Origin: Patescibacteria group bacterium
GTDB lineage: Bacteria; Patescibacteriota; Microgenomatia; UBA1406; HO2-37-13b
Direction: 5' to 3'
NCBI GenBank assembly: GCA_035289305.1
Contig: DATDXN010000016.1
Coordinates: forward strand, 18,315-82,314
Length of the DNA: 64,000 nucleotides
Made by a program: the position numbers and the translations under genes. Shown in pieces: positions 10,911 through 24,111 of this stretch; the stretch's first letter is position 1, and every line of letters begins with the position of its first letter. A model generated the notes under the pieces. It did no database searches. It worked only from the letters and a program-made list of their open reading frames with translations, and was not told the DNA's origin.

Positions 10911-10948
10911 TGCATCTATTCTAACAAAAAAAAGATTCTCTATTGACC

Positions 10949-10977
10949 TTGAAATATTGTAGAGGATGCGTTACAAT
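10949..10977 (+). promoter_or_regulatory. Sigma-70-like promoter for the 11003 gene
   Basis: TTGAAA (10949-10954), a 17-nt spacer, then TACAAT (10972-10977). It lies 26 nt upstream of the ATG. Confidence 0.4.
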
Positions 10978-11002
10978 ACACCTCCAAATTAGTTATAAAC
11001 AT

Positions 11003-12865
11003 ATGAATCGGAAAGAATTACCACCACCCACTACCCAACCGCATATCAAAATAATAAAAGAAGTGCCTGCTCTTTCTCCTATCGAGAAACGTCTCGTCCA
11101 CAGTGCGGTGAATGAAAATATAGACCAAGGAGTAGATCCAAAAGAAACCCATCAGAGAGGACAATACACCGAAGAAAGAATTCTTTTCCTGAAACTTAAT
11201 CTTCCTCCTTCATATAATTTTCAAGAAGTTCTTGAAACAATATATCCCAAATCTCTCGAGGATTCTGGTAATACTACAGCAAAAGAAAAACCCACAATAC
11301 CATGGCTTGCAGCAAAACCTTTCTCCACCGAAGATGAACAAGAAATAAAAAAATTATTGCCTCGCCTAGTGCTTGATGATCCAGTATATGAAGAAACATT
11401 GGACCTACCCGATTTTCCTCTATATGCCGTAAGCACTCTCCTCACTTCTGAAACGTATGAAAAAGCTCATGAAAAAATGGTGAAGACTATAAGAAAATAT
11501 ATACACGAAGCAATCGGGAATAGAGGGGAAATCGTCCTTACGGAAATACTTGAGGGAAATTCTCGTTTTGTAAAAGGAGCCCTCATCCAACAAGACATAC
11601 GCCATGCACTTTTTGGACAACCAACAGAGGATGGAGGATTTTATTATCGTCATCCGACGGTATTTCTCAGATGGGTTAACCAGTGTCATGATCGAAAAGC
11701 TCTGAAAGAAGTAATGGGTGTAATGGGTATAGAATCAAAAGAAAACGAAAAAATTCGTGGTCTTTTATTGCATACGTTTGCAATGCCTGCGCAAGAAGGA
11801 ATACATACACATATTCGAAATAGTCAAGATGACTCACGCATACGCCCCTCCTCACAAACAATAATGATGGCAATCGGAGAAAGCAATCTACCTGATATAT
11901 CATCTATGGAAAAAACCATACAAGAAACACTTCAAAAAAAATACTTACCTTCTCAATCATGTTGTTCTATCGAAGTAGCGCCACTTCCTGAAGCGAGTGG
12001 AAATTTCTATTATAAAATTCCAACGAGGAGTATAGAAGATACTTTCTCGATGTTGCAACAATCTGTTTCACTCATGGACTCCCTTAAAGAAAAGGGGTTG
12101 CTGCATCCGCTTACCGGAATGCCCCTTCGCACTGGCACAATGCTTGAATTTGAAAATCTAAACGATACAGAACGGAAAGTTTTGTTGCATTCATTCGCAG
12201 CACTCACTTGTGCATTATGGCTCTCTATCAGTCCTGTTGATCGACTAGAACATTTTCTTCAAGCCCAACGAAATTCCTTAATCGGCCATGATGATCATGG
12301 CAACGGAAGGTATGTCATATATAACAAGCTTCCCTTCGTAACTGATATGCTTTCTTTTGATGTGGCTCGTTTAGAGACGTTATTTACAGCGCATGTTGCG
12401 GAAACTTATAAACAAAATGGAATTGAGGACGCACGACAAACGATGAAGGAAATAATAGATGCTATCGGTGAAAACCTCATATCGCTCAATCGCTCTCCTG
12501 TAAATATAGAGTCTTTGCAAGATGTATATTCACTTTTGGGAGTAAAGTATGATGATAAATGTCATGAAACTATGGTGGGTCTTGTATCTGATCATCGACG
12601 AAAAATTGGAAACAACAGCGATCGTATACAACGTTTCTCTCGCGCATTGAAACGGGCGAAAAAAGAAAGTGCAGAAGAAAAAATACGAAAAATAGAAACT
12701 CTCCTTCATGATCTTGAAAACAGCAAGGTATACATTGACGATTATTTTCTTTTGGGGAAAGAGGGACGAAACAGGCTCGCCGGTAAGATCATAGAGATTT
12801 TGAAAGATGCGATAACTGCAACGGTAGGTAAAAAAAGAGGTGGCGTAGATTTTTCCTCTCTCTGA
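11003..12865 (+). CDS. Hypothetical protein (about 620 aa, no recognisable domains)
   Basis: Long intact ORF with a hydrophilic, charged sequence. The start is taken at MNRKELPPP; the upstream TTG in the ORF track is unlikely. Confidence 0.55.
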   Translation: MNRKELPPPTTQPHIKIIKEVPALSPIEKRLVHSAVNENIDQGVDPKETHQRGQYTEERILFLKLNLPPSYNFQEVLETIYPKSLEDSGNTTAKEKPTIPWLAAKPFSTEDEQEIKKLLPRLVLDDPVYEETLDLPDFPLYAVSTLLTSETYEKAHEKMVKTIRKYIHEAIGNRGEIVLTEILEGNSRFVKGALIQQDIRHALFGQPTEDGGFYYRHPTVFLRWVNQCHDRKALKEVMGVMGIESKENEKIRGLLLHTFAMPAQEGIHTHIRNSQDDSRIRPSSQTIMMAIGESNLPDISSMEKTIQETLQKKYLPSQSCCSIEVAPLPEASGNFYYKIPTRSIEDTFSMLQQSVSLMDSLKEKGLLHPLTGMPLRTGTMLEFENLNDTERKVLLHSFAALTCALWLSISPVDRLEHFLQAQRNSLIGHDDHGNGRYVIYNKLPFVTDMLSFDVARLETLFTAHVAETYKQNGIEDARQTMKEIIDAIGENLISLNRSPVNIESLQDVYSLLGVKYDDKCHETMVGLVSDHRRKIGNNSDRIQRFSRALKRAKKESAEEKIRKIETLLHDLENSKVYIDDYFLLGKEGRNRLAGKIIEILKDAITATVGKKRGGVDFSSL

Positions 12866-12940: not shown

Positions 12941-13957
12941 ATGCATATACAACTTATTCCAGACAACTTCGATAAAGATATTTATAACCAAATAGCCACT
13001 CATCCCCTCCAGTCGTGGCAGTGGGGGGAGGCGCGGAAAAAGATGGGGATTGCAATAATGCGAGTCGGCGAATACCATAAAGAAACACTCGTTAATGTCT
13101 ACCAAGTCACTTTTCACCAGATTCCCCACACGCCTTTTACCATCGGATATTTGCCGCGATCTGCTACACCTTCAGAAGAAGTCGTGCATTTTCTTGAACA
13201 TGAAGGAAAGAAAAGAAACTGTATTTTCATCAAAGTTGAACCTTACGTAAGAAAATCAAAAATAAATGGAAATCCCTTAGGTGCAAATATAAATCCACCC
13301 CTGGGGTGTATTTTATCTTCTCACCCATTATTTCCAAATTGGACGCTCTTGCTTGATCTCACTAAATCTGAAGATGAGCTTTTGAAAAATATGCATCCAA
13401 AAACGAGATACAATATCAAACTTGCGCAGAAAAAGGGTGTAATTGTGAAAGAAATGACAAATACGCAAGGATTTGAAATATTTGCGAAGCTCTATTTTGA
13501 AACATGCAAAAGACAAAAGTATTTTGGTCACAATACGACCTATCACAAGACCATTTTTGAAACTTTGAAAAATACAATCTCACATATCTTGGTTGCTTTT
13601 TATGAAAAAACACCACTTGCCGCGTATGAGATTTTCATCTTTAACGGCGTCTTGTATTATCCCTACGGAGGATCTTCTGTTCAATTACGCAATCTTATGA
13701 TGCCACATCTTCTCATGTGGGAGGCAATACGCTTCGGGAAACAACAGGAGGCAAAAAAGTTTGATATGTGGGGATCACTCCCACCTTCATATGATGTGAA
13801 GAATCCCTGGGCAGGGTTTACTCGATTTAAAGAAGGGTTCGGTGGTATACACACGGAACTTATCGGTAGCTTCGATCTTGTAATTAACAAGTTACTCTAT
13901 CCTATATATAATTTTGTCTATAAAACACGAAGAAAATTTTTGACTTTAAATTTTTGA
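12941..13957 (+). CDS. FemAB-family peptidoglycan interpeptide-bridge peptidyltransferase (aminoacyl-tRNA dependent)
   Basis: The 338-aa ORF has FemAB/FemX-like features (KTRYNIKLAQKKGV, MWGS, GFTRFKEGFGG) in GNAT-like tandem halves. Confidence 0.65.
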   Translation: MHIQLIPDNFDKDIYNQIATHPLQSWQWGEARKKMGIAIMRVGEYHKETLVNVYQVTFHQIPHTPFTIGYLPRSATPSEEVVHFLEHEGKKRNCIFIKVEPYVRKSKINGNPLGANINPPLGCILSSHPLFPNWTLLLDLTKSEDELLKNMHPKTRYNIKLAQKKGVIVKEMTNTQGFEIFAKLYFETCKRQKYFGHNTTYHKTIFETLKNTISHILVAFYEKTPLAAYEIFIFNGVLYYPYGGSSVQLRNLMMPHLLMWEAIRFGKQQEAKKFDMWGSLPPSYDVKNPWAGFTRFKEGFGGIHTELIGSFDLVINKLLYPIYNFVYKTRRKFLTLNF

Positions 13958-13970
13958 CTTTAAATTTTCA

Positions 13971-16949
13971 TTATTGCCATGCTTCACAATTAATTCGAAA
14001 CGGACAAAAATCACACCATGGCCCGACGTTTGCCGCAAATAACCCTTTCTGTATCTGCGAAATCGTATTTTTTACCACTGCCTTTGCTTCTTCAATGTCC
14101 TCCGGCTTTTTTTTCGTTGAGAATACATCTGCATCTTGTAGGAAGTGAAAAGTCAGCGTAATATCATCAACGGGTTTTGCGTAAAAACTTTTATCAGACA
14201 CAGCCAATGCGTAGAGACTCATCTGTAGATTTTTTTTCAAGGCAGGTAGCGTTGGTTTTTTTCCAGTTTTATAATCAATGATTTCCAGCCCTCCATCTTT
14301 TCGCGCATCAACCCTGTCTATTTTCCCACTGATAAATGTAGTTTCATCTATCTTCACGGTAAATCGTTTTTCAAGATCAAGAATTGAGAGATTATCCGTA
14401 TGATAGCGCATAAAAAAACTCTGCAACATCTTCTTTCCCTCTTTTTTCATTTTTTCCTCATGGGTCCTGGAAACATATCCCAATGGCAACCAACACATTT
14501 CATAAAACGTAAAAAGATCATCAAGCGTTACTCTGCCGACTTTTTTGAGAAACAGATAAAACTTCTGCAAAGCTCTATGAATACTGTCTCCAAAAGAGGC
14601 AGCTGCTGATGGCAAAGTAGGGATTTTTAAGACATACTGATATTTATAACGTAAGGGACATGTCTTATACGACTCAATCTGTGAATAGGAAAGCCGCGAC
14701 GGAACGGGACGAGAAAAAACAGGCTCTTTGTCTTTTTTTTCTTCATGTTTCTTAAAATCAACCCCGATTGAATCGGGATCAGCTCCAATGAGATCGGGAT
14801 CAAAAATCGAGAGCTGTGATTTTTCTTCCTTTTGCCTGTGGGTAAGTCTTTGGACAAAATCTTCACCCATTGCCTCAACGACAAATGGTGAAACTTTGCG
14901 CATCCGCCTGCCCTCGCCGTAGTTAAGACTTGACGTAAAATATACTTTGTCCCGGGCGCGCGTCACCCCCACATAAAAAAGCCTGCGCTCTTCCTCAAGA
15001 TGATAATCACCCTCTGGCAGTATTTCTTTGATAAGCTCATCGGGAATGGGGATCGGCTCTCGCCGCTCTCGTGTGGGAAACCGATCAAGCGTCAGATTGA
15101 CCAAAAAGACGACTTTAAATTCCATACCCTTTGCAGAATGTACAGTAAGAATGTTGACCGCATCGCGCTCGCTTATATCAAGTTCAGGCACGAGGGGGGA
15201 CTCTTTAAACTCCATACACATGTGGATGAAATCAACCGCCGCCTCTACCGATGCGTCTTCCTGCCTGACCTCACGTGTTTTTAAAAACTCGAAAAATCGA
15301 GAGATATTGACCACTTTTCGCTCGTCCTTCGCTGTCTTTGCTGATGCAAGATAGGATAAATATCCTGATTCTTCGAGGAAAAAGTAGAGAATCTGACCTA
15401 CTGTTTCTTTTGAAAAAAGGGAAAGCGCTCGCTCAACAATGCCATAGATTTTCTTGATTGTCTCTTTGGTCTCCTGCCGTGTGATAAAAAGCTCCCTCCG
15501 GTAGATCTCAAATTCGCTGCGTGCGTATTCTGTGTAGAAAAATGAAAGATACACGTGCATAGCCTCAAAAAGTGAGAGACTTGTCCGTTTGGCAAATGAG
15601 ATAAAACGCGCTACGTCTTTCTCATCAAGGTGGAAAATATCCATGGAGATCACACGGTAAAAACTCGCTGAATCAGAAACATCTGTCAAAAAAGTAAGAT
15701 ATGCAATAAGATCCTTGATTTCTGGTTGCTTGAAAAGCATACCCTGCCCCAAAAATTGAAAAGGAATTCCATGTCGCTCAAATGTATGAGCAAAAGGATC
15801 TGCGTGGCTATTGGCACGCATCAAAAGAGCGATATCGCGATACTTGTATCCTTTTGTGATCAATTCCTGGATTTTCTCTGCGACGTATTCGCATTCTTTG
15901 GTGATATGAGGGGCGACAAAAAGTGAAACGCTTTCACCGTTTCCCTTACCTGTCATGCTTTTGAGGTTTTTTGAAATATTGAGTCTGCTTTCCAATGTGT
16001 CGGGATTATTGTGCGTGATGACGCGGTAGGCAATATCAAGAATGTGTTGATTTGATCGGTAATTCTCAAGGAGTACCATCTGTTTTGCTTGGCCGTAATC
16101 TTTCATGAACTGAAGAATATTTGAAACGGAGGCACCTCGAAACTTATAGATGCTTTGATTATCATCTCCGATGACTGAAAGCTTCGGCTGTTCTTGAGGC
16201 GGGGCGAGGAGCTTAATCAGCTCATATTGAGCAATATTAGTGTCTTGAAACTCATCAACAAGAATATATTTAAACCGCGCCTTGTACTTCTCTTTGATAT
16301 TTTGGCGGGCGCGAAAAAGCTTCACGGTATAAAAAATAAGATCTGCAAAATCCATGATAGTATCTTTCAATTTAATATCTTGAAATACCGTATACGCATG
16401 TGCTAATTCAGTGTTTTTCTTCACATCGGGACTTTCGACTTTATGGACTTTTTCCTGTGCACGTGCCCATTTCATATAGTTTTCCGGCGCAATGTCTTCG
16501 TCTCGAAGGCGCGAAAAATGTTGGATCAATCCTTCGATAAATTTATAGGGGTTTCCTAGAGGACGGAAATAGTCGAGATTGAACAAAAACAGTTTTTTTT
16601 GAAGATAGATGATTGATTGAGCCTGCGTATAAAGCTTATATTCGGGGGAAAGACCCATATGCATCCCGTCTTCTTTCAAAACACCGTCGCAAAAAGAGTG
16701 AAATGTGGCGATATGTGTCTGAAAATATCCATAAGGAAGTATTTTATCCACTCGCTCCTCAATTTCGTTCACTGCCTTTTCCGTGAAGGTAAGCGCCAGA
16801 ATCTCATCGGGACGGGCGAGTTTGTGAGCAATGAGATATTTAATCTTTTCAACTAGTACGGTGGTTTTGCCAGTTCCTGCTCCGGCGATGATGAGAAGCG
16901 GTCCATCATTGTATACAACTGCCTGTTTCTGCGAATGAGTCAACTTCAC
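13971..16949 (-). CDS. UvrD/PcrA-like helicase fused to a RecB-family PD-(D/E)XK nuclease with a C-terminal Cys cluster (AddA/AddB-like)
   Basis: N-terminal IIAGAGTGKTTVL UvrD motif I. C-terminal GKIDRVD...IIDYKTG nuclease motifs and a CDFCPFRINC cluster. Confidence 0.85.
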   Translation of the reverse strand: MKLTHSQKQAVVYNDGPLLIIAGAGTGKTTVLVEKIKYLIAHKLARPDEILALTFTEKAVNEIEERVDKILPYGYFQTHIATFHSFCDGVLKEDGMHMGLSPEYKLYTQAQSIIYLQKKLFLFNLDYFRPLGNPYKFIEGLIQHFSRLRDEDIAPENYMKWARAQEKVHKVESPDVKKNTELAHAYTVFQDIKLKDTIMDFADLIFYTVKLFRARQNIKEKYKARFKYILVDEFQDTNIAQYELIKLLAPPQEQPKLSVIGDDNQSIYKFRGASVSNILQFMKDYGQAKQMVLLENYRSNQHILDIAYRVITHNNPDTLESRLNISKNLKSMTGKGNGESVSLFVAPHITKECEYVAEKIQELITKGYKYRDIALLMRANSHADPFAHTFERHGIPFQFLGQGMLFKQPEIKDLIAYLTFLTDVSDSASFYRVISMDIFHLDEKDVARFISFAKRTSLSLFEAMHVYLSFFYTEYARSEFEIYRRELFITRQETKETIKKIYGIVERALSLFSKETVGQILYFFLEESGYLSYLASAKTAKDERKVVNISRFFEFLKTREVRQEDASVEAAVDFIHMCMEFKESPLVPELDISERDAVNILTVHSAKGMEFKVVFLVNLTLDRFPTRERREPIPIPDELIKEILPEGDYHLEEERRLFYVGVTRARDKVYFTSSLNYGEGRRMRKVSPFVVEAMGEDFVQRLTHRQKEEKSQLSIFDPDLIGADPDSIGVDFKKHEEKKDKEPVFSRPVPSRLSYSQIESYKTCPLRYKYQYVLKIPTLPSAAASFGDSIHRALQKFYLFLKKVGRVTLDDLFTFYEMCWLPLGYVSRTHEEKMKKEGKKMLQSFFMRYHTDNLSILDLEKRFTVKIDETTFISGKIDRVDARKDGGLEIIDYKTGKKPTLPALKKNLQMSLYALAVSDKSFYAKPVDDITLTFHFLQDADVFSTKKKPEDIEEAKAVVKNTISQIQKGLFAANVGPWCDFCPFRINCEAWQ

Positions 16950-16963
16950 GTAATGATTATATA

Positions 16964-19336
16964 TTACGACTCACTTAAATATTTATTCAACATTTCTCGT
17001 ATCATATCTAATTGTTCTTTTCTTGCTTTGTTTGGTGATGTGTTCGTTCTTAATTTGTAGCAAAATTGTTTCATGTAAGTAGCAATCGTTCTTTCTCCTA
17101 ATCCAAACTCTTTTCCCACCTTTTCAAAACTATCACCGTCGAAAAATACCCTCTTTACTATTTGTCCGTCACGGGGACTTAATATCATTTCTATCAATTT
17201 CTCAAGTTCTCTTCTAATAGCATACCTATTATGCTTGCGAACAATATATGGCTCGTATAGAGTCAGATCTATCTGCGCATTCCTTCTGTTAATATATGCT
17301 TTTATAAGAGACCTTCCAATTTCTGTCTCCTGCGCTAATTCTTCTGTTAGCGATTCGATCTCATCGTGTGGAATTCCGCAAGGATGCAATTTTAAAACAA
17401 CATCAATCCTATCTCTTACTTTTTCGTATGGAAGTGTTTTATGCCTACTGCGTAAAACCATACCAATGCCCATTTGTTCTTCCTTCGCGATATAAGAAGC
17501 CGCTGCGGCACGTGCGTCATAAAAAACTTGTTGAGGACTATAATATTTCGTTTTCACTTTCATAGCTTTTTCTGTTAACTTTCTCTGAATTGCAGCAATA
17601 GCTTCATGGAGCATTTCTTCATTATCATGCGCATTTTTTGACTTATATCCTTCAACTCCGTTCATAATAGTTTTTAAGTTTAAAAGCAAAAAAACAGTAC
17701 GTCCAGCAGATGAAACATTTGTATCAATGCTTGCCATCGCTTGTAGAATTTGACGTTGAGTTTCAGTTCTCACAAAATATGGCAAAGCCTTTACCATTAA
17801 TTCGTAAAAATCGAAAGAAGAGATACCGGGATTTTTATCATATATTTCCGAAGCAACGTGATTGATTGCAGCTGCAATTTCTATGATTGATCCACCCTTT
17901 AAATGTTTTCTCAAAAGCGACCGTGCTTGCACTGAATCTATCACTGAATGAATCTTGCCTCCAAAAAACTGTATTCGTGCATCGCTTTTTACATTTTTTC
18001 CTCTTTGACTTTTTTCTTGCACACTGCCTATTTGTGTCCCGCGTAGAACATAATACGGATCGAAAATATCTGGAATAAGAATAGGCGCTTGTGTCGAACG
18101 GGTGAAATCATCAACCAATTGAATAGCAATGCTTTTATGTTTTTGCGTCTCTTCACATGGCCGCAAAATTCTTCCAAGCTCCTGCGTCGCTACGATGCCG
18201 GATTGTGTGGGAGCTAAAAATATTCCAACTTCTGTCTCCGGCGAATCCCACCCTAACTGCAACATATTAACACCGAGCACAACTTGCACCTCTCCATTTT
18301 TATGCGACTGCAAAATTTGTTCTCTCTGTTTATCAGAAAGTTTACCATGCACTGCTTGAGCAGATATCCCAAGTCTGCGAAGTTTGTCTGCCAATTGCTC
18401 AACATGATTAATTGATAAACCAAACACCACCGTTCTTTTTCCGCGAATTTTTTCGTGTATCGAAGTCATCTCATCTACTTGTTGAGGAATAAAAGATATG
18501 TTTGATGAAAGACTATGAAGACCTGCAAGTAGACCGATCGTCAAATAGTTTCGTTTCTCTGTATTAAGATATTTTTCCAATTGTCGTTGATCATACGCCC
18601 CTTCTGGAGATATAGTAATAGCGTCAACAGCCATATCAGTGGTGAAAAGATGCACATCCAATGATGTTAAGATGCCTTTTTCTATTGCCTCCTCAAGCGA
18701 CATTTCATGGATAAGGCGTGTAAATACGCCCAACCAATGTTCGTCGCCTTTTATAATATTTCGTTCTTTGTATCCCGCAAGTTGTTCGAAATAAGGCGTT
18801 GCGGTAAGTCCTATTTTGATTGCGTTTTGGGGGATATGTTTGAACAACGTATGCCTTTCCTCACCTAAAGCAGTATGTATTTCGTCACAAATAAGAAGTT
18901 CTATTTTGTTTGTGTCGATTTTTTGCTGTTCAATGAGTTTGAGAAAAGACGTATAGGTAGTATTTAATGTTTGTCGTCCTAGATTTTTTTCAGCAGTATA
19001 ATAATTACCCACTTCTACGTGAGAAGCAAAATTTTCCATTGCACGATGTGTTTGCAGAAGAATAGGACGAGTGGGTGAAAGAATAACGGTATTCAAGTTC
19101 ATTGCTCCGATGAGTTCTGCTGCGACAACGGTCTTTCCAAATCCCGTAGGCAAACTTAAATATCCCGCAATATCGCCTTTTTTCAAAGAATCAAGCACTG
19201 ATTGTGCGACTGGTTTTTGGTGCTCTCGCAGCCTACTTTCTTGAGACGCATCTAAGTATCTGGTAAGACCCTCAATTGCCTTTTCGCAAGGAGCAACTAC
19301 CCTCCCTTGCTCTGGAACAACATATCTCTCCAACAT
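16964..19336 (-). CDS. SF2 DEAH-type helicase with a C-terminal sigma-70 region-4-like HTH
   Basis: LPTGFGKT (motif I), LICDEIH (motif II), GLTATP, and QELGRILR (motif VI). The C-terminus LSPRDGQIVKRVFFDGDSFEKVGKEFGLGERTIATYMKQFCYKLR parallels the rpoD region 4.2 in this window, [49 protein letters not shown]. Confidence 0.7.
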   Translation of the reverse strand: MLERYVVPEQGRVVAPCEKAIEGLTRYLDASQESRLREHQKPVAQSVLDSLKKGDIAGYLSLPTGFGKTVVAAELIGAMNLNTVILSPTRPILLQTHRAMENFASHVEVGNYYTAEKNLGRQTLNTTYTSFLKLIEQQKIDTNKIELLICDEIHTALGEERHTLFKHIPQNAIKIGLTATPYFEQLAGYKERNIIKGDEHWLGVFTRLIHEMSLEEAIEKGILTSLDVHLFTTDMAVDAITISPEGAYDQRQLEKYLNTEKRNYLTIGLLAGLHSLSSNISFIPQQVDEMTSIHEKIRGKRTVVFGLSINHVEQLADKLRRLGISAQAVHGKLSDKQREQILQSHKNGEVQVVLGVNMLQLGWDSPETEVGIFLAPTQSGIVATQELGRILRPCEETQKHKSIAIQLVDDFTRSTQAPILIPDIFDPYYVLRGTQIGSVQEKSQRGKNVKSDARIQFFGGKIHSVIDSVQARSLLRKHLKGGSIIEIAAAINHVASEIYDKNPGISSFDFYELMVKALPYFVRTETQRQILQAMASIDTNVSSAGRTVFLLLNLKTIMNGVEGYKSKNAHDNEEMLHEAIAAIQRKLTEKAMKVKTKYYSPQQVFYDARAAAASYIAKEEQMGIGMVLRSRHKTLPYEKVRDRIDVVLKLHPCGIPHDEIESLTEELAQETEIGRSLIKAYINRRNAQIDLTLYEPYIVRKHNRYAIRRELEKLIEMILSPRDGQIVKRVFFDGDSFEKVGKEFGLGERTIATYMKQFCYKLRTNTSPNKARKEQLDMIREMLNKYLSES

Positions 19337-19390
19337 AATACCCTATTATACCATAAAATTGTCTTATAGTAAATAGAGAACTATCGGGTA

Positions 19391-20479
19391 CTATTCAAGA
19401 AAATCGCGCAGTTTCTTGGCGCGCGTGGGGTGGCGAAGTTTGCGTATTGCTTTTGCCTCAATCTGCCTGATACGCTCTCTCGTGACGCGAAATTCTCTCC
19501 CCACTGCCTCAAGCGTCTTGGGCTTGCCGTCATCCAGCCCAAACCGCATAATAAGCACTTTTTTCTCGCGATCAGAAAGCGTATCAAGCACATCATTGAG
19601 ATAATCCTTCAAAAACTCCCGTGATACTTTATCATAGAGAGTCGGTTTATTCTGGTCGGATAAAAACTCCTCAAGCGTTGTTTCTTTATCATCGCCCACC
19701 GGCGTTGAAAGAGACTTGGGGTGCTGTGATATTTTAATCAAATTTTCAACTTCTTTGACCGAAATCCCGAGCTCTTTTGCAATCTCTTTGGTCGTTGCGT
19801 CTCTTCCCAATTTTTGTGTGAGACGTCGCTGTGTCTTGTAGTACCTGTTGATATGATCGACCATGTGTACCGGAATGCGTATCGTACGCGACTGATCTGC
19901 AATAGCGCGCGTGATCGCCTGCCGTATCCACCATGTCGCATAGGTTGAGAATTTATACCCCCGTCGCCAGTCGTATTTCTCAACCCCCTTGATAAGTCCC
20001 TGGTTGCCTTCTTGAATAAGATCCAAGAAAGACAACCGTCTCCCCAGATATTTTTTGGCAATTGAGACCACTAGTCGAAGATTCGATTTAATGAGTTTCT
20101 CACGAGCTGCCAGATCATCTTTTTCATATCTTTTTGCGAGAGACACTTCTTCCTTAAACGTCAGCAAGGGGTATCTACCGATTTCGCGAAGATACATCTT
20201 GATCGGATCCAAAGACTCGCCTTGTTTGAGCGTGATAATCTGTTTGAGCTCTTTCTCAAGCTCCTCAACTGTCTTTTTACTATCCTCATCCTCTGTTGAA
20301 ACATTTTCAAAAATATCAATATTTTTTTTGATTGCTTTGTCAAAAAGATCATCTATCTCATTAATATGATGCTCTGGATCAGAATACACGAAAAAAATAT
20401 CATCAAGCACTAAAAATCCATTTTCCTCGCCTTGTCTCAAGAGCTCTTTGACGTTCTTGGGAATTTTTTGGATACTCAT
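19391..20479 (-). CDS. rpoD: RNA polymerase sigma factor RpoD (sigma-70)
   Basis: Contains [35 protein letters not shown] and region 4.2. Confidence 0.95.
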
Positions 20480-20490
20480 GAGAGTATATT

Positions 20491-22278
20491 CTATATGAGA
20501 GAGAGCTTTTTTTCCACTTGTGATAGTTTGCGAAGGTAATCCTCAAGTCTGACATCGCTTTTTTCGGTTGCTCCTTCCTCCTTCATCATGTCCCTGATCT
20601 TCTTTTTGAGGGACATTCGTTTAAATTCAAGAAGAGGCTTTTCAAAATTTTTTTCCTCTACTTCTTCAAAGATAGCAATATCAAAAAGGACTATTTCATC
20701 AAAAACAGGCACAAGCTCTTTGGGAATGACATGAGCAAAAGCGTTGACAGAAAATGAGACCGGATGATCCTGACTGCAATAATCAAGAAGATGATTGACG
20801 AGTTTCCGATGAGAAGGAAGTGTAAAATCTTCTACATCTAAAACAGTCAGTGTCTTTTTTAGTATATGATCAGGATCTTTATGCTGAAAGATCGCGTGAA
20901 GGATATAGCGAGAAAGAATGTCGCGTCGGGAAATGCTACTGCGCTGTACTGTATGTGCGCTGGGCCGACGCCGCAAGGTAGTTTTTTGTTTTGCAATGGA
21001 CTTTCTGATCAAATCTTCTATCGATCTTTCATTCACCTGAAGAAGAGCGCTCATTTTTTTCAGATAATGTGATTTCACGATGGGATTTCTGATAAGCACA
21101 AGGAAGGGAATAACTTCCTCTGCAATGTTTTTTTTCGAGAACGCGTCTTCAATGCCATATTTTGCAAGCGCAGTTTCGATAACAAAATCATAAATAGCAA
21201 TGGGGCGCTCAATACTTTTCTTAAAAAGCTGTTTATCATGCGCAATTGCTTCATCTGGATCCTTCCCATTTGCAAATCGCGCAACCATTATTTCAAAATC
21301 AAGACTTTCTCCATCGAGTATCGCTTTTTTCGTCGTTGCAATTCCCGAAAAATCTGCATCCAAACATATAATGATTTTATTCGTGTACCGCTTCAGAAGC
21401 ATGAGTTGATCACGCGTCACAGCCGATCCTTTGACCGCAACCACATTGCCAATACCTATCTGAAAACAACTCATCGTATCAAACTCGCCCTCAACCACCA
21501 CAACCATCCCCTCTTTTTTGATCGCATCTTTTGCGATATGGATGCCAAAAAGCGTTTCGCGCTTATGATATATCGGTGTCTCTGGAGTATTGACATATTT
21601 TGCCTCTTTTGTAGGCGCGATCAGTCTCCCTGAAAAACCAACGATGTTTCCCGAGGCTAGAGTCAGCGGAAACATCACTCTCTTTCTGAAGCGATCATAA
21701 TATCGCCCGCCCGCACTTTTGATGACAAGACCTGCATCAACAATTTCCTCATCACGAAAGCCCTTTTTTTTCAAAAATGTGTGGAGCGAATTCCACGACG
21801 AAGGAGCATATCCCAGGCCAAACGTCTCAATGGTTTGTGCTCTTACACTTCGCTGTACTAGATATTGGCGTGCTTTTTCTCCAACCGTATGTTTCGTGAG
21901 TAAAAAGTGATAAAATTCTTGAGCAAGATGGTTGGCCGCAAGGAGTCGCTCTTTCTTTTTCCACTCCTTATCTTCAAACGACATACCTTCAAGCGATACG
22001 CCTGTTTTCTCGGCAAGTTCTCTTAAGATTTCGAAAAAAGGTCGTGCCTCCCATTTCATCAGAAACGCGATCACGTCCCCACCTGTTTGACACGCGCCAA
22101 AACATCTCCACGATTGCCGGTCGGGCGATATGATAAACGAAGGAGTCTTTTCCTGATGAAAAGGACACAAAGCTTTGAAGTTCCGTCCCGCTTTTTTAAG
22201 AGTGATACATGACCCGATGATATCAACAATATCCACTCTTCTTTTTACCTCATCAACAACGGTATCCATACACCTCAC
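20491..22278 (-). CDS. dnaG: DNA primase
   Basis: Zinc-binding [11 protein letters not shown]...[13 protein letters not shown], a TOPRIM region (EGEFD) and an N-terminal RVDIVDIIG. Confidence 0.93.
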
Positions 22279-22994
22279 TATTCTATACTATTATCACTCC
22301 TACTCTTTCTGAAAAAATCAAGATGTTCTTTAAATGTTGAAAAAACATTGCGCCAGGTAAAAAATGCAGACCGACCGAAGATGCGGGGATAGTGATGTAC
22401 AGGAACTTCTGCAAATCGAGCGCCTCTCTTCTCCAAGTTTTTAATCAATTCGACGCAAATAAGTCCTGATGAAGCAGTCAACGTGATTTCTTTTAGGAGC
22501 GACCTCCGTATCAATCTGAAATCACAATCTATATCAGCAATTGGGAGATTATACATCTTATGAACCGTCCAATTATAGACTGTTCCAATAATCTTTCGTA
22601 TCCACCTGTCTTTTCGCTCTGCTTTATATCCGTTTACCACATCTATATGAGAGGTCGCTTTTTTCACCAGTTCTTTTAGTTCGCATGAATCATATTGTCC
22701 ATCTCCATCAGTATAAAACACCCATTCTTTCGTGGCTGATGAAAAACCAGACTGAAGCGCGCCGCCATATCCCTTGTTTTTTTCGTGGCGTATGACTTTG
22801 AGCGATGGAAAATATCGCGACAGAAGAGAAGCTACCTCATATGTATCATCACACGATCCATCATCTACGATAATGACTTCAAATTCATTTGTGACAATAG
22901 GAAGAATACTATACATTTTCACGATCAAATACGGCAAAATTTTGGCATCGTTGAAGGCCGGAAAAAATACTGAAATACTGTTAATTTTTCTCAT
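22278..22994 (-). CDS. Family 2 glycosyltransferase (polyprenol-phosphate sugar synthase / DPM1-like)
   Basis: Contains VIIVDDGSCDDT, HEKNKGYGGALQSGF and a DGDGQ DxD-like motif. Confidence 0.8.
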   Translation of the reverse strand: MRKINSISVFFPAFNDAKILPYLIVKMYSILPIVTNEFEVIIVDDGSCDDTYEVASLLSRYFPSLKVIRHEKNKGYGGALQSGFSSATKEWVFYTDGDGQYDSCELKELVKKATSHIDVVNGYKAERKDRWIRKIIGTVYNWTVHKMYNLPIADIDCDFRLIRRSLLKEITLTASSGLICVELIKNLEKRGARFAEVPVHHYPRIFGRSAFFTWRNVFSTFKEHLDFFRKSRSDNSIE

Positions 22995-24111
22995 AAAACA
23001 TGTGTATAGTCTCTGCGATATATTCTATATCATGCCGCCTCAAGAAAGCGTGAAAAGGTAGACTAATAATCTCTTTTGCCAATCCTTCAGCACAAGGAAA
23101 ATCTCCCTTTTTAAATCCTAAATGGGAAAATGCAGGGACTAAATGGACAGGATACGGATAGTGAATCAAACTTTCTATGTGATATTTTTTTAAAAACGCT
23201 TGAAGCTTATCTCTTTTTTGTGCACGCACTACCATCAAATGATATGAAGGAGTAGACGGTACGGAAGTAGAAAGAAATGTCATATATGACAATAATTTTT
23301 TTCGTCTAAAAGTTTGACGATAGATCAAAGCTATTTTTTTCTTTTTTTCAAGTTCGCGGCCAAAACGCGCAAGATACAAAGAAATCACTCCTGCCTGTGT
23401 CTCTGGTAATCTACTATGACCGGAAATGAAAAGACTCTTGTAGCGAATCTCCTCACCGTATGATCGGGCTTGCGTGAAAAACTGGTGGTATTTTGTATTT
23501 CGAGTCCAAACAGCTCCTCCATCTCCAATGGTACCTACATTTTTGGTCGGATAAAATGAAAAACAACTGATATCTCCCCACGTTCCCACGGTGCGCCCTT
23601 TAAAGAGCGCACCAAGCGATTGAGCACAATCTTCTATAAGCACGAGTTTGTTTTTCCGTGTAAGTGCATGTATTTTTTCTATATCACCAATTAAACCATA
23701 GAGATGAACTATAATAATAGCCTTCGTACGGTTTGTTATTTTCTTTTCTACTTCTTTTGGATTGATTTGACCGTTTTTATCAACATCAACCGGGACTGGA
23801 CGAGCACCAGAAAGCACCACAGGAAAAGCAGTCGGATAGCTATTGACGGGAAACATCACCTCATCGCGTGGGGAAAGACGAAGTGACTGAAGTGCAAGAA
23901 GAAGAGCATCATGTCCTGATGCAACAGTTTTTATGTATCCGCCTCCCAAAAGAGAACACAGTTTTTCTTCAAGACGCGAATTTTGCTCCCCATGCAAGAA
24001 AATTCCCTCATCAAGCACATACGAAATCATCCGTATGATATTTCTTTTGTCTTGCCGTGCGCGTTCTTTTACATCGGTGAAAGAGATATGGCGTTGCTGT
24101 ATGCCTTTCAT
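22981..24111 (-). CDS. DegT/DnrJ/EryC1/StrS-family PLP-dependent sugar aminotransferase
   Basis: The 376-aa ORF has a FSFYPTKN lysine motif and EDCAQSLGA. Confidence 0.85.
   Translation of the reverse strand: MKGIQQRHISFTDVKERARQDKRNIIRMISYVLDEGIFLHGEQNSRLEEKLCSLLGGGYIKTVASGHDALLLALQSLRLSPRDEVMFPVNSYPTAFPVVLSGARPVPVDVDKNGQINPKEVEKKITNRTKAIIIVHLYGLIGDIEKIHALTRKNKLVLIEDCAQSLGALFKGRTVGTWGDISCFSFYPTKNVGTIGDGGAVWTRNTKYHQFFTQARSYGEEIRYKSLFISGHSRLPETQAGVISLYLARFGRELEKKKKIALIYRQTFRRKKLLSYMTFLSTSVPSTPSYHLMVVRAQKRDKLQAFLKKYHIESLIHYPYPVHLVPAFSHLGFKKGDFPCAEGLAKEIISLPFHAFLRRHDIEYIAETIHMFYEKN

Follow-up and report, generated by a model that had tools for sequence, protein, structure and literature searches.

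A Patescibacteria gene predicted to join an XPB/RadD-like SF2 motor to a diverged sigma-70-type module

The gene considered here, called helicase-sigma, was found on a stretch of 64,000 nucleotides (nt) of contig DATDXN010000016.1 (GCA_035289305.1) from a Patescibacteria group bacterium of the Microgenomatia. This whole stretch is referred to as the window, and positions are those of the window. The N-terminal half of the protein is a superfamily 2 (SF2) helicase/translocase core. By sequence and by predicted structure, residues 455-790, i.e., ~335 amino acids (aa), are a whole sigma-70-type module with regions 1.2, 2, 3 and 4. With about even confidence, we read the gene as a Patescibacteria-restricted, diverged sigma-70-type factor combined with an XPB/RadD-like double-strand DNA translocase, docked on RNA polymerase (RNAP) and powered by ATP; the RNAP binding, the DNA substrate and the outcome of ATP hydrolysis are what we infer. 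The open reading frame (ORF) and its parts are as follows (AF2, AlphaFold2; pLDDT, predicted local distance difference test; HTH, helix-turn-helix; HMM, hidden Markov model).

16964..19336, minus strand: whole ORF, SF2 ATPase, linker and sigma-like module, 790 aa plus stop.
18053..19303, minus strand: SF2 helicase/translocase core, residues 12-428, two RecA-like lobes (Pfam, motifs, Foldseek).
17987..18052, minus strand: disordered linker rich in Lys, Ser and Thr, residues 429-450 (pLDDT <50 in the full-length AF2 model; unconserved columns in alignment A2).
17834..17974, minus strand: helical hairpin opening the sigma-like module, residues 455-501, family motif ITFSG...ELL..RFK (AF2 helices 462-481 and 484-501; conservation).
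17441..17830, minus strand: sigma region 1.2 and domain-2-like part, residues 503-632, signatures LP, A.SIDSN and LNLKTILSA.EPY (structure matches).
17267..17431, minus strand: sigma domain-3-like three-helix part, residues 636-690 (colinear hhalign/HMM match to RpoD region 3; AF2 helices 636-650, 657-671 and 675-687).
17042..17218, minus strand: sigma region 4 (4.1-4.2 HTH), residues 707-765, degenerate in the window copy (Pfam, structure).

A sequence-only reading of this DNA had likened the last ~50 aa to region 4.2 of the neighbouring RpoD. This likeness is marginal in the window copy and secure through the family, and it is part of a longer one that covers the whole module of ~335 aa. Sigma70_r4 (PF04545) matches residues 719-763 of the window copy with E 5e-4 (19.9 bits; 23 bits in the genome scan), ahead of GerE (0.011), and BLASTP of the C-terminal tail against the neighbouring RpoD gives E 0.017. 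Two relatives that were rescanned on Sigma70_r4 place the family at 62-64 bits (63.5 and 62.4). A precomputed match to the same model exists in almost all of the 49 clusters of relatives described below. The C-terminal consensus of the family is essentially that of region 4.1-4.2 of primary sigmas, including RHPSRS. The C-terminus is thus a sigma region 4 and not a generic HTH, in agreement with the same reading.

The profile of the C-terminal half (A2) matches SigA/RpoD in the PDB with E 1e-35, in a colinear alignment that starts in region 2.1 and extends to the C-terminal end. The comparison of A2 with the window RpoD by hhalign gives a probability of 99.7% and E 4e-26 over RpoD residues 125-359. 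It has to be kept in mind that region 4 supplies ~103 of the 126 bits of the profile-to-sigma score, isolated sigma-4 chains reaching ~103 bits. Pfam Sigma70_r2 and Sigma70_r3 have no match in the helicase-sigma protein.

The AF2 model of A2 is all-helical (pLDDT 87.9), and the full-length model (pLDDT 84.7) consists of two bodies, the helicase (residues 12-428) and the sigma-like part (residues 455-790). With the C-terminal model, Foldseek retrieves sigma factors in all of the top 50 positions. A comparison with 48,161 representative chains that does without the Foldseek prefilter places sigma factors or sigma domains at 18 of the top 20 ranks; the other two are an engineered epitope scaffold (3les_A, rank 10), aligned over the range of Taq sigma-2, and an RNA-guided transcription complex (rank 19). 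Domain 2 aligns with the RpoS region 1.2-2 fragment 5h6x_B (Z 8.0, root-mean-square deviation (rmsd) 2.9 Å, 96/96 aa), with Taq sigma-2 3ugo_A (Z 7.7, 3.0 Å over 113 aa) and with 8qn8_F (Z 9.1, 3.3 Å over 113 aa); domain 4 aligns with sigma-4 structures (Z ~7, 1.9-2.0 Å). In E. coli sigma-70, the aligned part runs from residues 90-95, where region 1.2 begins, to residue 613. The structure matches carry weight because sigma entries nearly fill the top ranks and because of the coverage of each domain. The tests for sigma-70 membership thus give region 4 at the level of the family and of structure, and the fold of domain 2 (regions 1.2-2.4).

Functional positions were mapped by adding the window RpoD to the family alignment, with an uncertainty of 1-2 positions at the -10 residues. 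The following elements are retained: the proline of region 1.2 (P519, near-invariant), region 2.1 (LNLKTILSA.EPY aligned to RpoD), part of region 2.2 (E-I-I-Q-A-A vs. D-L-I-Q-E-G in RpoD), the region 3.1-like HTH and region 4. The region 3.2 linker is shorter than in RpoD. A.SIDSN, between regions 1.2 and 2.1, is a near-invariant motif specific to the family. In the -35 recognition helix, R-E-R-R-Q is found exactly in 13 of 49 sequences and its E-R-R-Q core in ~22; the others are diversified. A predicted complex between the sigma-2-like part (A7) and a clamp-helix fragment of the host beta-prime subunit (P0126:320-440) has a score of 0.00, obtained without controls, and is evidence neither way. 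Inspection by eye of this beta-prime subunit (L098:1438-2937 (+), contig C27) reveals an insertion of ~150 aa rich in Lys and Glu (~residues 150-300) before the clamp helices.

In the motor, motif I (PTGFGKT) is located at residues 63-69, motif II (DEIH) at 151-154, motif III (TATP) at 178-181 and motif VI (QELGRILR) at 385-392. Across 49 relatives, GKT, DE.H, TAT and Q..GR..R show little or no variation, and motifs I, II and VI had already been recognised in the sequence-only reading. On the ORF, Pfam detects ResIII (residues 35-182, 3e-22) and Helicase_C (residues 290-392, 3e-14), both over their cut-offs. Motifs I, II (DExH), III and VI together with two RecA-like lobes in the predicted fold assign the protein to SF2. 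The ATPase is very probably active because these four motifs are invariant or nearly so in the family.

The best NCBIfam match is RadD (NF053632), with 90.2 bits vs. a cut-off of 720, over residues 35-398; XPB (NF045503) reaches 64.7 bits vs. a cut-off of 610. A sequence search of the PDB with the motor gives archaeal XPB/Rad25 (5.7e-15) and RadD (4e-11 over residues 36-392). Foldseek of the motor gives the SauUSI motor, RadD (rmsd 5-6 Å over ~395 columns) and Ssl2/XPB in Pol II pre-initiation complexes. XPB/Rad25, RadD and Ssl2 of TFIIH are double-strand DNA translocases. The signature of XPB is an R-E-D (RED) motif after motif III; it is absent here, where the sequence reads TATPYFEQLAGY. 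The motor is thus a member neither of XPB/Rad25 (score below the cut-off, no RED motif) nor of the RadD equivalog. XPB/Ssl2 and archaeal XPB/Rad25 are nevertheless the closest solved sequences, and XPB/Ssl2 in TFIIH is an SF2 DNA translocase that is tied to the initiation apparatus, i.e., the same concept as in helicase-sigma, which differs by the lack of RED and of TFIIH partners and by a score far under the model cut-off. In the case of RadD (YejH), the match covers the whole core, whereas the C-terminal part of RadD is replaced by the sigma-like module. Outgroup helicases of ~750 aa from Clostridia and cyanobacteria have only the motor in common with helicase-sigma (28% identity) and lack a sigma-like half (hhalign probability 0.3%).

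A search of 5.8 billion proteins yields ~49 clusters that match near full length with 32-48% identity and E <1e-100. Below them, there is a sharp drop to E 1e-32 and to helicases matching the N-terminal half alone. The ORF itself is uninterrupted, with no internal stop in 790 codons (ORF listing and translation). The recurrence of the same architecture across the family, in ~49 clusters and in 71 proteins collected from metagenomes, means that the fusion is not a frameshift artefact; judged from these sequences, it is ancient and selected. This agrees with the single ORF, rather than two genes, of the sequence-only reading.

The sigma-like module, called here sigma-prime, also occurs without the motor. 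A profile of it that leaves out region 4 (A6) was compared with 1.84 billion cluster representatives: 242 proteins match at E <=1e-3 and 209 at E <=1e-10. The best 150 of the 242 all belong to the architecture classes that were scored, and no canonical-type sigma stands out among them, though they were not checked protein by protein. The total of 242 is small, which suggests that A6 does not reach ordinary sigmas. The collected proteins include 71 with a long N-terminus of helicase type, 39 stand-alone forms (~290-370 aa) and 44 with a C-terminal extension; almost all of them start with Met and can thus be considered complete. In the stand-alone forms, Pfam detects region 4 only, and there is no helicase gene nearby at the two loci with upstream sequence (the third contig is too short). 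The existence of complete stand-alone forms suggests that sigma-prime functions as a self-contained unit, like a sigma; since the module can apparently act without the motor, the motor appears to be an add-on.

One metagenomic protein of 642 aa (P0178) combines sigma-prime and region 4 with a C-terminal domain (CTD) of the RNAP alpha subunit (PF03118, 50 bits). The tail of a helicase-fused protein (P0008) has a faint match to alpha-CTD/HhH (helix-hairpin-helix). Tails of 80-440 aa without Pfam match follow region 4 in P0012, P0017, P0018, P0023, P0034, P0038, P0039, P0043 and P0047, and extensions of 130-220 aa precede the helicase in P0008, P0053, P0041 and P0045; the window copy has neither tail nor extension. 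In a FastTree phylogeny of the sigma-prime module, the helicase-fused forms are clustered without being one clade (31 changes, 13 of them forced by supported branches). The long branches make this tree unreliable, and no order of events was drawn from it.

In databases, these proteins are named only «helicase» or «sigma-70 family sigma factor». The sequence-only reading had taken the family to be undescribed, and a full-text search of the literature, outside subscription journals, returned no description of a helicase-sigma fusion. The helicase-sigma combination and the sigma-prime family thus appear to be new, both halves being in known superfamilies.

The host genome (0.9 Mb, 36 contigs) contains a second sigma-prime protein outside the window (P0125, 559 aa, L002:724-2403 (-), contig C1). 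It was found by a genome search with E 1.3e-9, a value independent of A2 and A6, both of which contain P0125; the A6 profile matches it as well, and the hhalign comparison of A2 with P0125 was disregarded as circular, P0125:1-320 being a row of A2. The sigma-like module, recognisable by the LHLKTILSAIEPY signature, and region 4 (27.6 bits) make up the N-terminal 320 aa of P0125. Its C-terminal ~240 aa have no family in Pfam, PADLOC or PHROG, and their GKKVIDIGCS stretch looks like motif I of S-adenosylmethionine (SAM) methyltransferases. Besides the sigma-prime proteins, the genome has three canonical sigmas, i.e., five sigma-type proteins in total, of which three carry sizeable additional parts. 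Since three canonical sigmas are retained, the helicase-sigma protein is likely an accessory factor. Among these five is a sigma of 544 aa (L093:1477-3111 (-), contig C36) with canonical regions 2, 3 and 4 and an N-terminal extension of ~300 aa without known family.

On the minus strand, dnaG, rpoD, the helicase-sigma ORF and a UvrD-nuclease gene follow each other head to tail.

20491-22278, minus strand: dnaG, precedes rpoD.
19391..20479, minus strand: rpoD, canonical regions 1.2-2-3-4, 362 aa, 54 nt upstream of the helicase-sigma ORF.
19345..19373, minus strand: promoter-like site TTTACT-17-TGgTATAAT in the 54-nt spacer between rpoD and helicase-sigma, ends 8 nt before the ATG.
13971..16949, minus strand: UvrD/PcrA-type SF1 helicase with C-terminal PD-(D/E)XK nuclease, 992 aa, begins 14 nt downstream of the helicase-sigma ORF.

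The C-terminus of the UvrD-nuclease matches PDDEXK_1 (1e-39), and in PADLOC its gene has UvrD-type matches only (GajB, DRT-associated helicase). In the region scanned, 25 promoter-like sites are observed vs. 19.5 expected; the site in the spacer is a low-confidence candidate and may be due to chance in AT-rich DNA. Rfam and tRNA scans across the window found no RNA genes. An ORF of 640 aa (10943-12865 (+)) is without Pfam family at E 1e-3. The placement in a dnaG-rpoD operon, as described in the sequence-only reading, is correct for the host genome and does not extend to the relatives: rpoD, dnaG and the UvrD-nuclease gene are absent from the neighbourhood at all five other loci inspected, so this context is likely incidental. 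Homologues of the FemAB family and of DegT/DnrJ aminotransferases are found near the gene here (12941-13957 (+) and 22981-24111 (-)) and, likewise within a few kb, at one Levybacteria locus (L013:4533-6730). We judge this recurrence to be that of common cell-envelope genes, uninformative for function.

A scan of 185,579 species genomes, made with two peptide patterns from a 13-row alignment (A5), which misses divergent members, gives five loci, including Levybacteria, Saccharibacteria and two metagenome-assembled genomes (MAGs) labelled Gammaproteobacteria. One of these two MAG loci lies on a contig whose genome belongs to the same family as the host of the window, so its label is doubtful.

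Several observations weigh against a sigma-type factor docked on RNAP. They concern: (i) the melting residues. In E. coli, Y430, W433, W434, Q437 and T440 are the primary-sigma residues that nucleate -10 melting and read position -12; the corresponding family columns are Q, variable, A or L, R or D, and A, i.e., these residues are not retained. Sigma-prime thus cannot be a conventional sigma. (ii) Region 4 of the window copy. It does not reach the gathering score of PF04545 (24.1 bits), and its -35 contact positions read E-R-T-A-T, the contact residues being lost. On this sequence, region 4 of the window copy is drifted, with either a changed DNA specificity or a lost -35 reading. The targeting to -35 put forward in the sequence-only reading thus suits the many relatives that retain the RERIRQ recognition helix, and not the window copy. 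(iii) The part outside region 4. Regions 2-3 alone (A3) are colinear with sigma and give only E 4.5e-4 with a probability of 33% by hhalign, and E 0.22 for RpoD in the PDB; moreover, Z-scores of 8-10 are middling for all-helical models. (iv) The distribution. The gene is sporadic, being present in 2 of 40 related genomes, and the census gives ~18 of 36,145 genera, all Patescibacteriota and mostly Microgenomatia, with the same result for the fusion-specific region and for the whole of sigma-prime. (v) The neighbourhood. No transcription gene is conserved as a neighbour among the loci of the relatives.

By comparison with primary and group 1-2 sigma-70 factors (RpoD/SigA), the order and the fold of regions 1.2, 2, 3 and 4 are alike, and region 4.2 is near the primary-sigma consensus in most relatives. 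The differences are that helicase-sigma has an SF2 ATPase of ~430 aa in the place of region 1.1, and that sigma-prime is a separate family without the melting/-10 residues and with a shorter region 3.2 linker. In primary sigmas, region 1.1 sits N-terminal to region 1.2 and, in the holoenzyme, lies in the channel for downstream DNA. In the mechanism that we propose, the motor would occupy this place on a flexible tether of ~20 aa. Sigma-prime would dock on core RNAP as a sigma does, its domain 2 contacting the clamp helices of beta-prime and its domain 4 the flap of beta, and most members of the family would also read a -35-like element. Docking would position the motor at the promoter-proximal duplex, where ATP hydrolysis would drive the opening or remodelling of DNA, and ATP-driven opening could compensate for the aromatic -10 melting residues that sigma-2 has lost. 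The motor at the place of region 1.1 and the lost melting residues suggest together that ATP may substitute for, or assist, promoter opening, in a way analogous to XPB in TFIIH. A full counterpart of TFIIH, with an XPB-like motor pumping the downstream duplex into the cleft for ATP-driven promoter opening, is an analogy that we regard as quite improbable; if true, it would add a third way of starting bacterial transcription to those of sigma-70 and of sigma-54 with AAA+ activators. There is also an analogy with sigma-54, which cannot open DNA alone and needs a separate ATPase, an AAA+ hexamer; in contrast, helicase-sigma would have an SF2 motor in cis, the folds are unrelated and no homology was detected.

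The loss of the melting residues fits as well a sigma mimic that does not initiate. Sigma-prime would then sit on core RNAP, in competition with sigma, while the motor would free stalled or idle RNAP from DNA or RNA, or clear promoter complexes, like HelD, RapA and Mfd, which are motors acting on RNAP complexes via their own dedicated binding domains. The sigma-likeness supports docking on the core in this case too, and an accessory, sporadic distribution is that of HelD/RapA-type helpers. We hold such a recycling factor or remodeller to be unlikely: stand-alone sigma-prime occurs without an ATPase, the -35 recognition helix is well retained in many members, which points to promoter reading, and helicase-sigma carries a sigma-like module, with no sequence match to HelD, RapA or Mfd and no likeness to their RNAP-binding parts. 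It is also conceivable that RNAP is not involved, and that the HTH domains 3 and 4 of sigma are the DNA-binding arm of a RadD-like motor acting in repair, recombination or replication. RadD is indeed the best NCBIfam match (90 bits), sigma domains are HTH DNA binders, and the gene lies between dnaG-rpoD and the UvrD-nuclease gene in the host genome. This neighbourhood is not conserved, though, the scores of the RadD and XPB models are far under their cut-offs, and what is retained is a whole sigma, including the fold of domain 2 and the proline of region 1.2, i.e., more than the HTHs. A repair helicase is therefore given a low probability.

A part in a mobile element or in anti-phage defence would agree with the patchy distribution and with the partial matches of the SF2 core to PbeA (PADLOC, 2.5e-25) and to type IV restriction and DpdF models and PHROG 16. 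These matches are limited to the generic helicase core. There are no nuclease or partner genes and the neighbours are housekeeping genes. No member of the family was found in 2.9 million viral contigs, in which only generic helicase matches to query residues 3-36 occur. Defence is thus very improbable.

In bacteria, initiation of the sigma-70 type is taught as ATP-independent; to our knowledge, the only systems known to open DNA by means of ATP are sigma-54 with its AAA+ activators and eukaryotic TFIIH. The transcription machinery of Patescibacteria is almost unstudied. An XPB/RadD-like motor covalently tied to a sigma without melting residues is a testable candidate for a different arrangement. 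Even as a recycling or repair factor, helicase-sigma would represent a new way of attaching a motor to RNAP, together with a sigma-prime family that had gone unnoticed.

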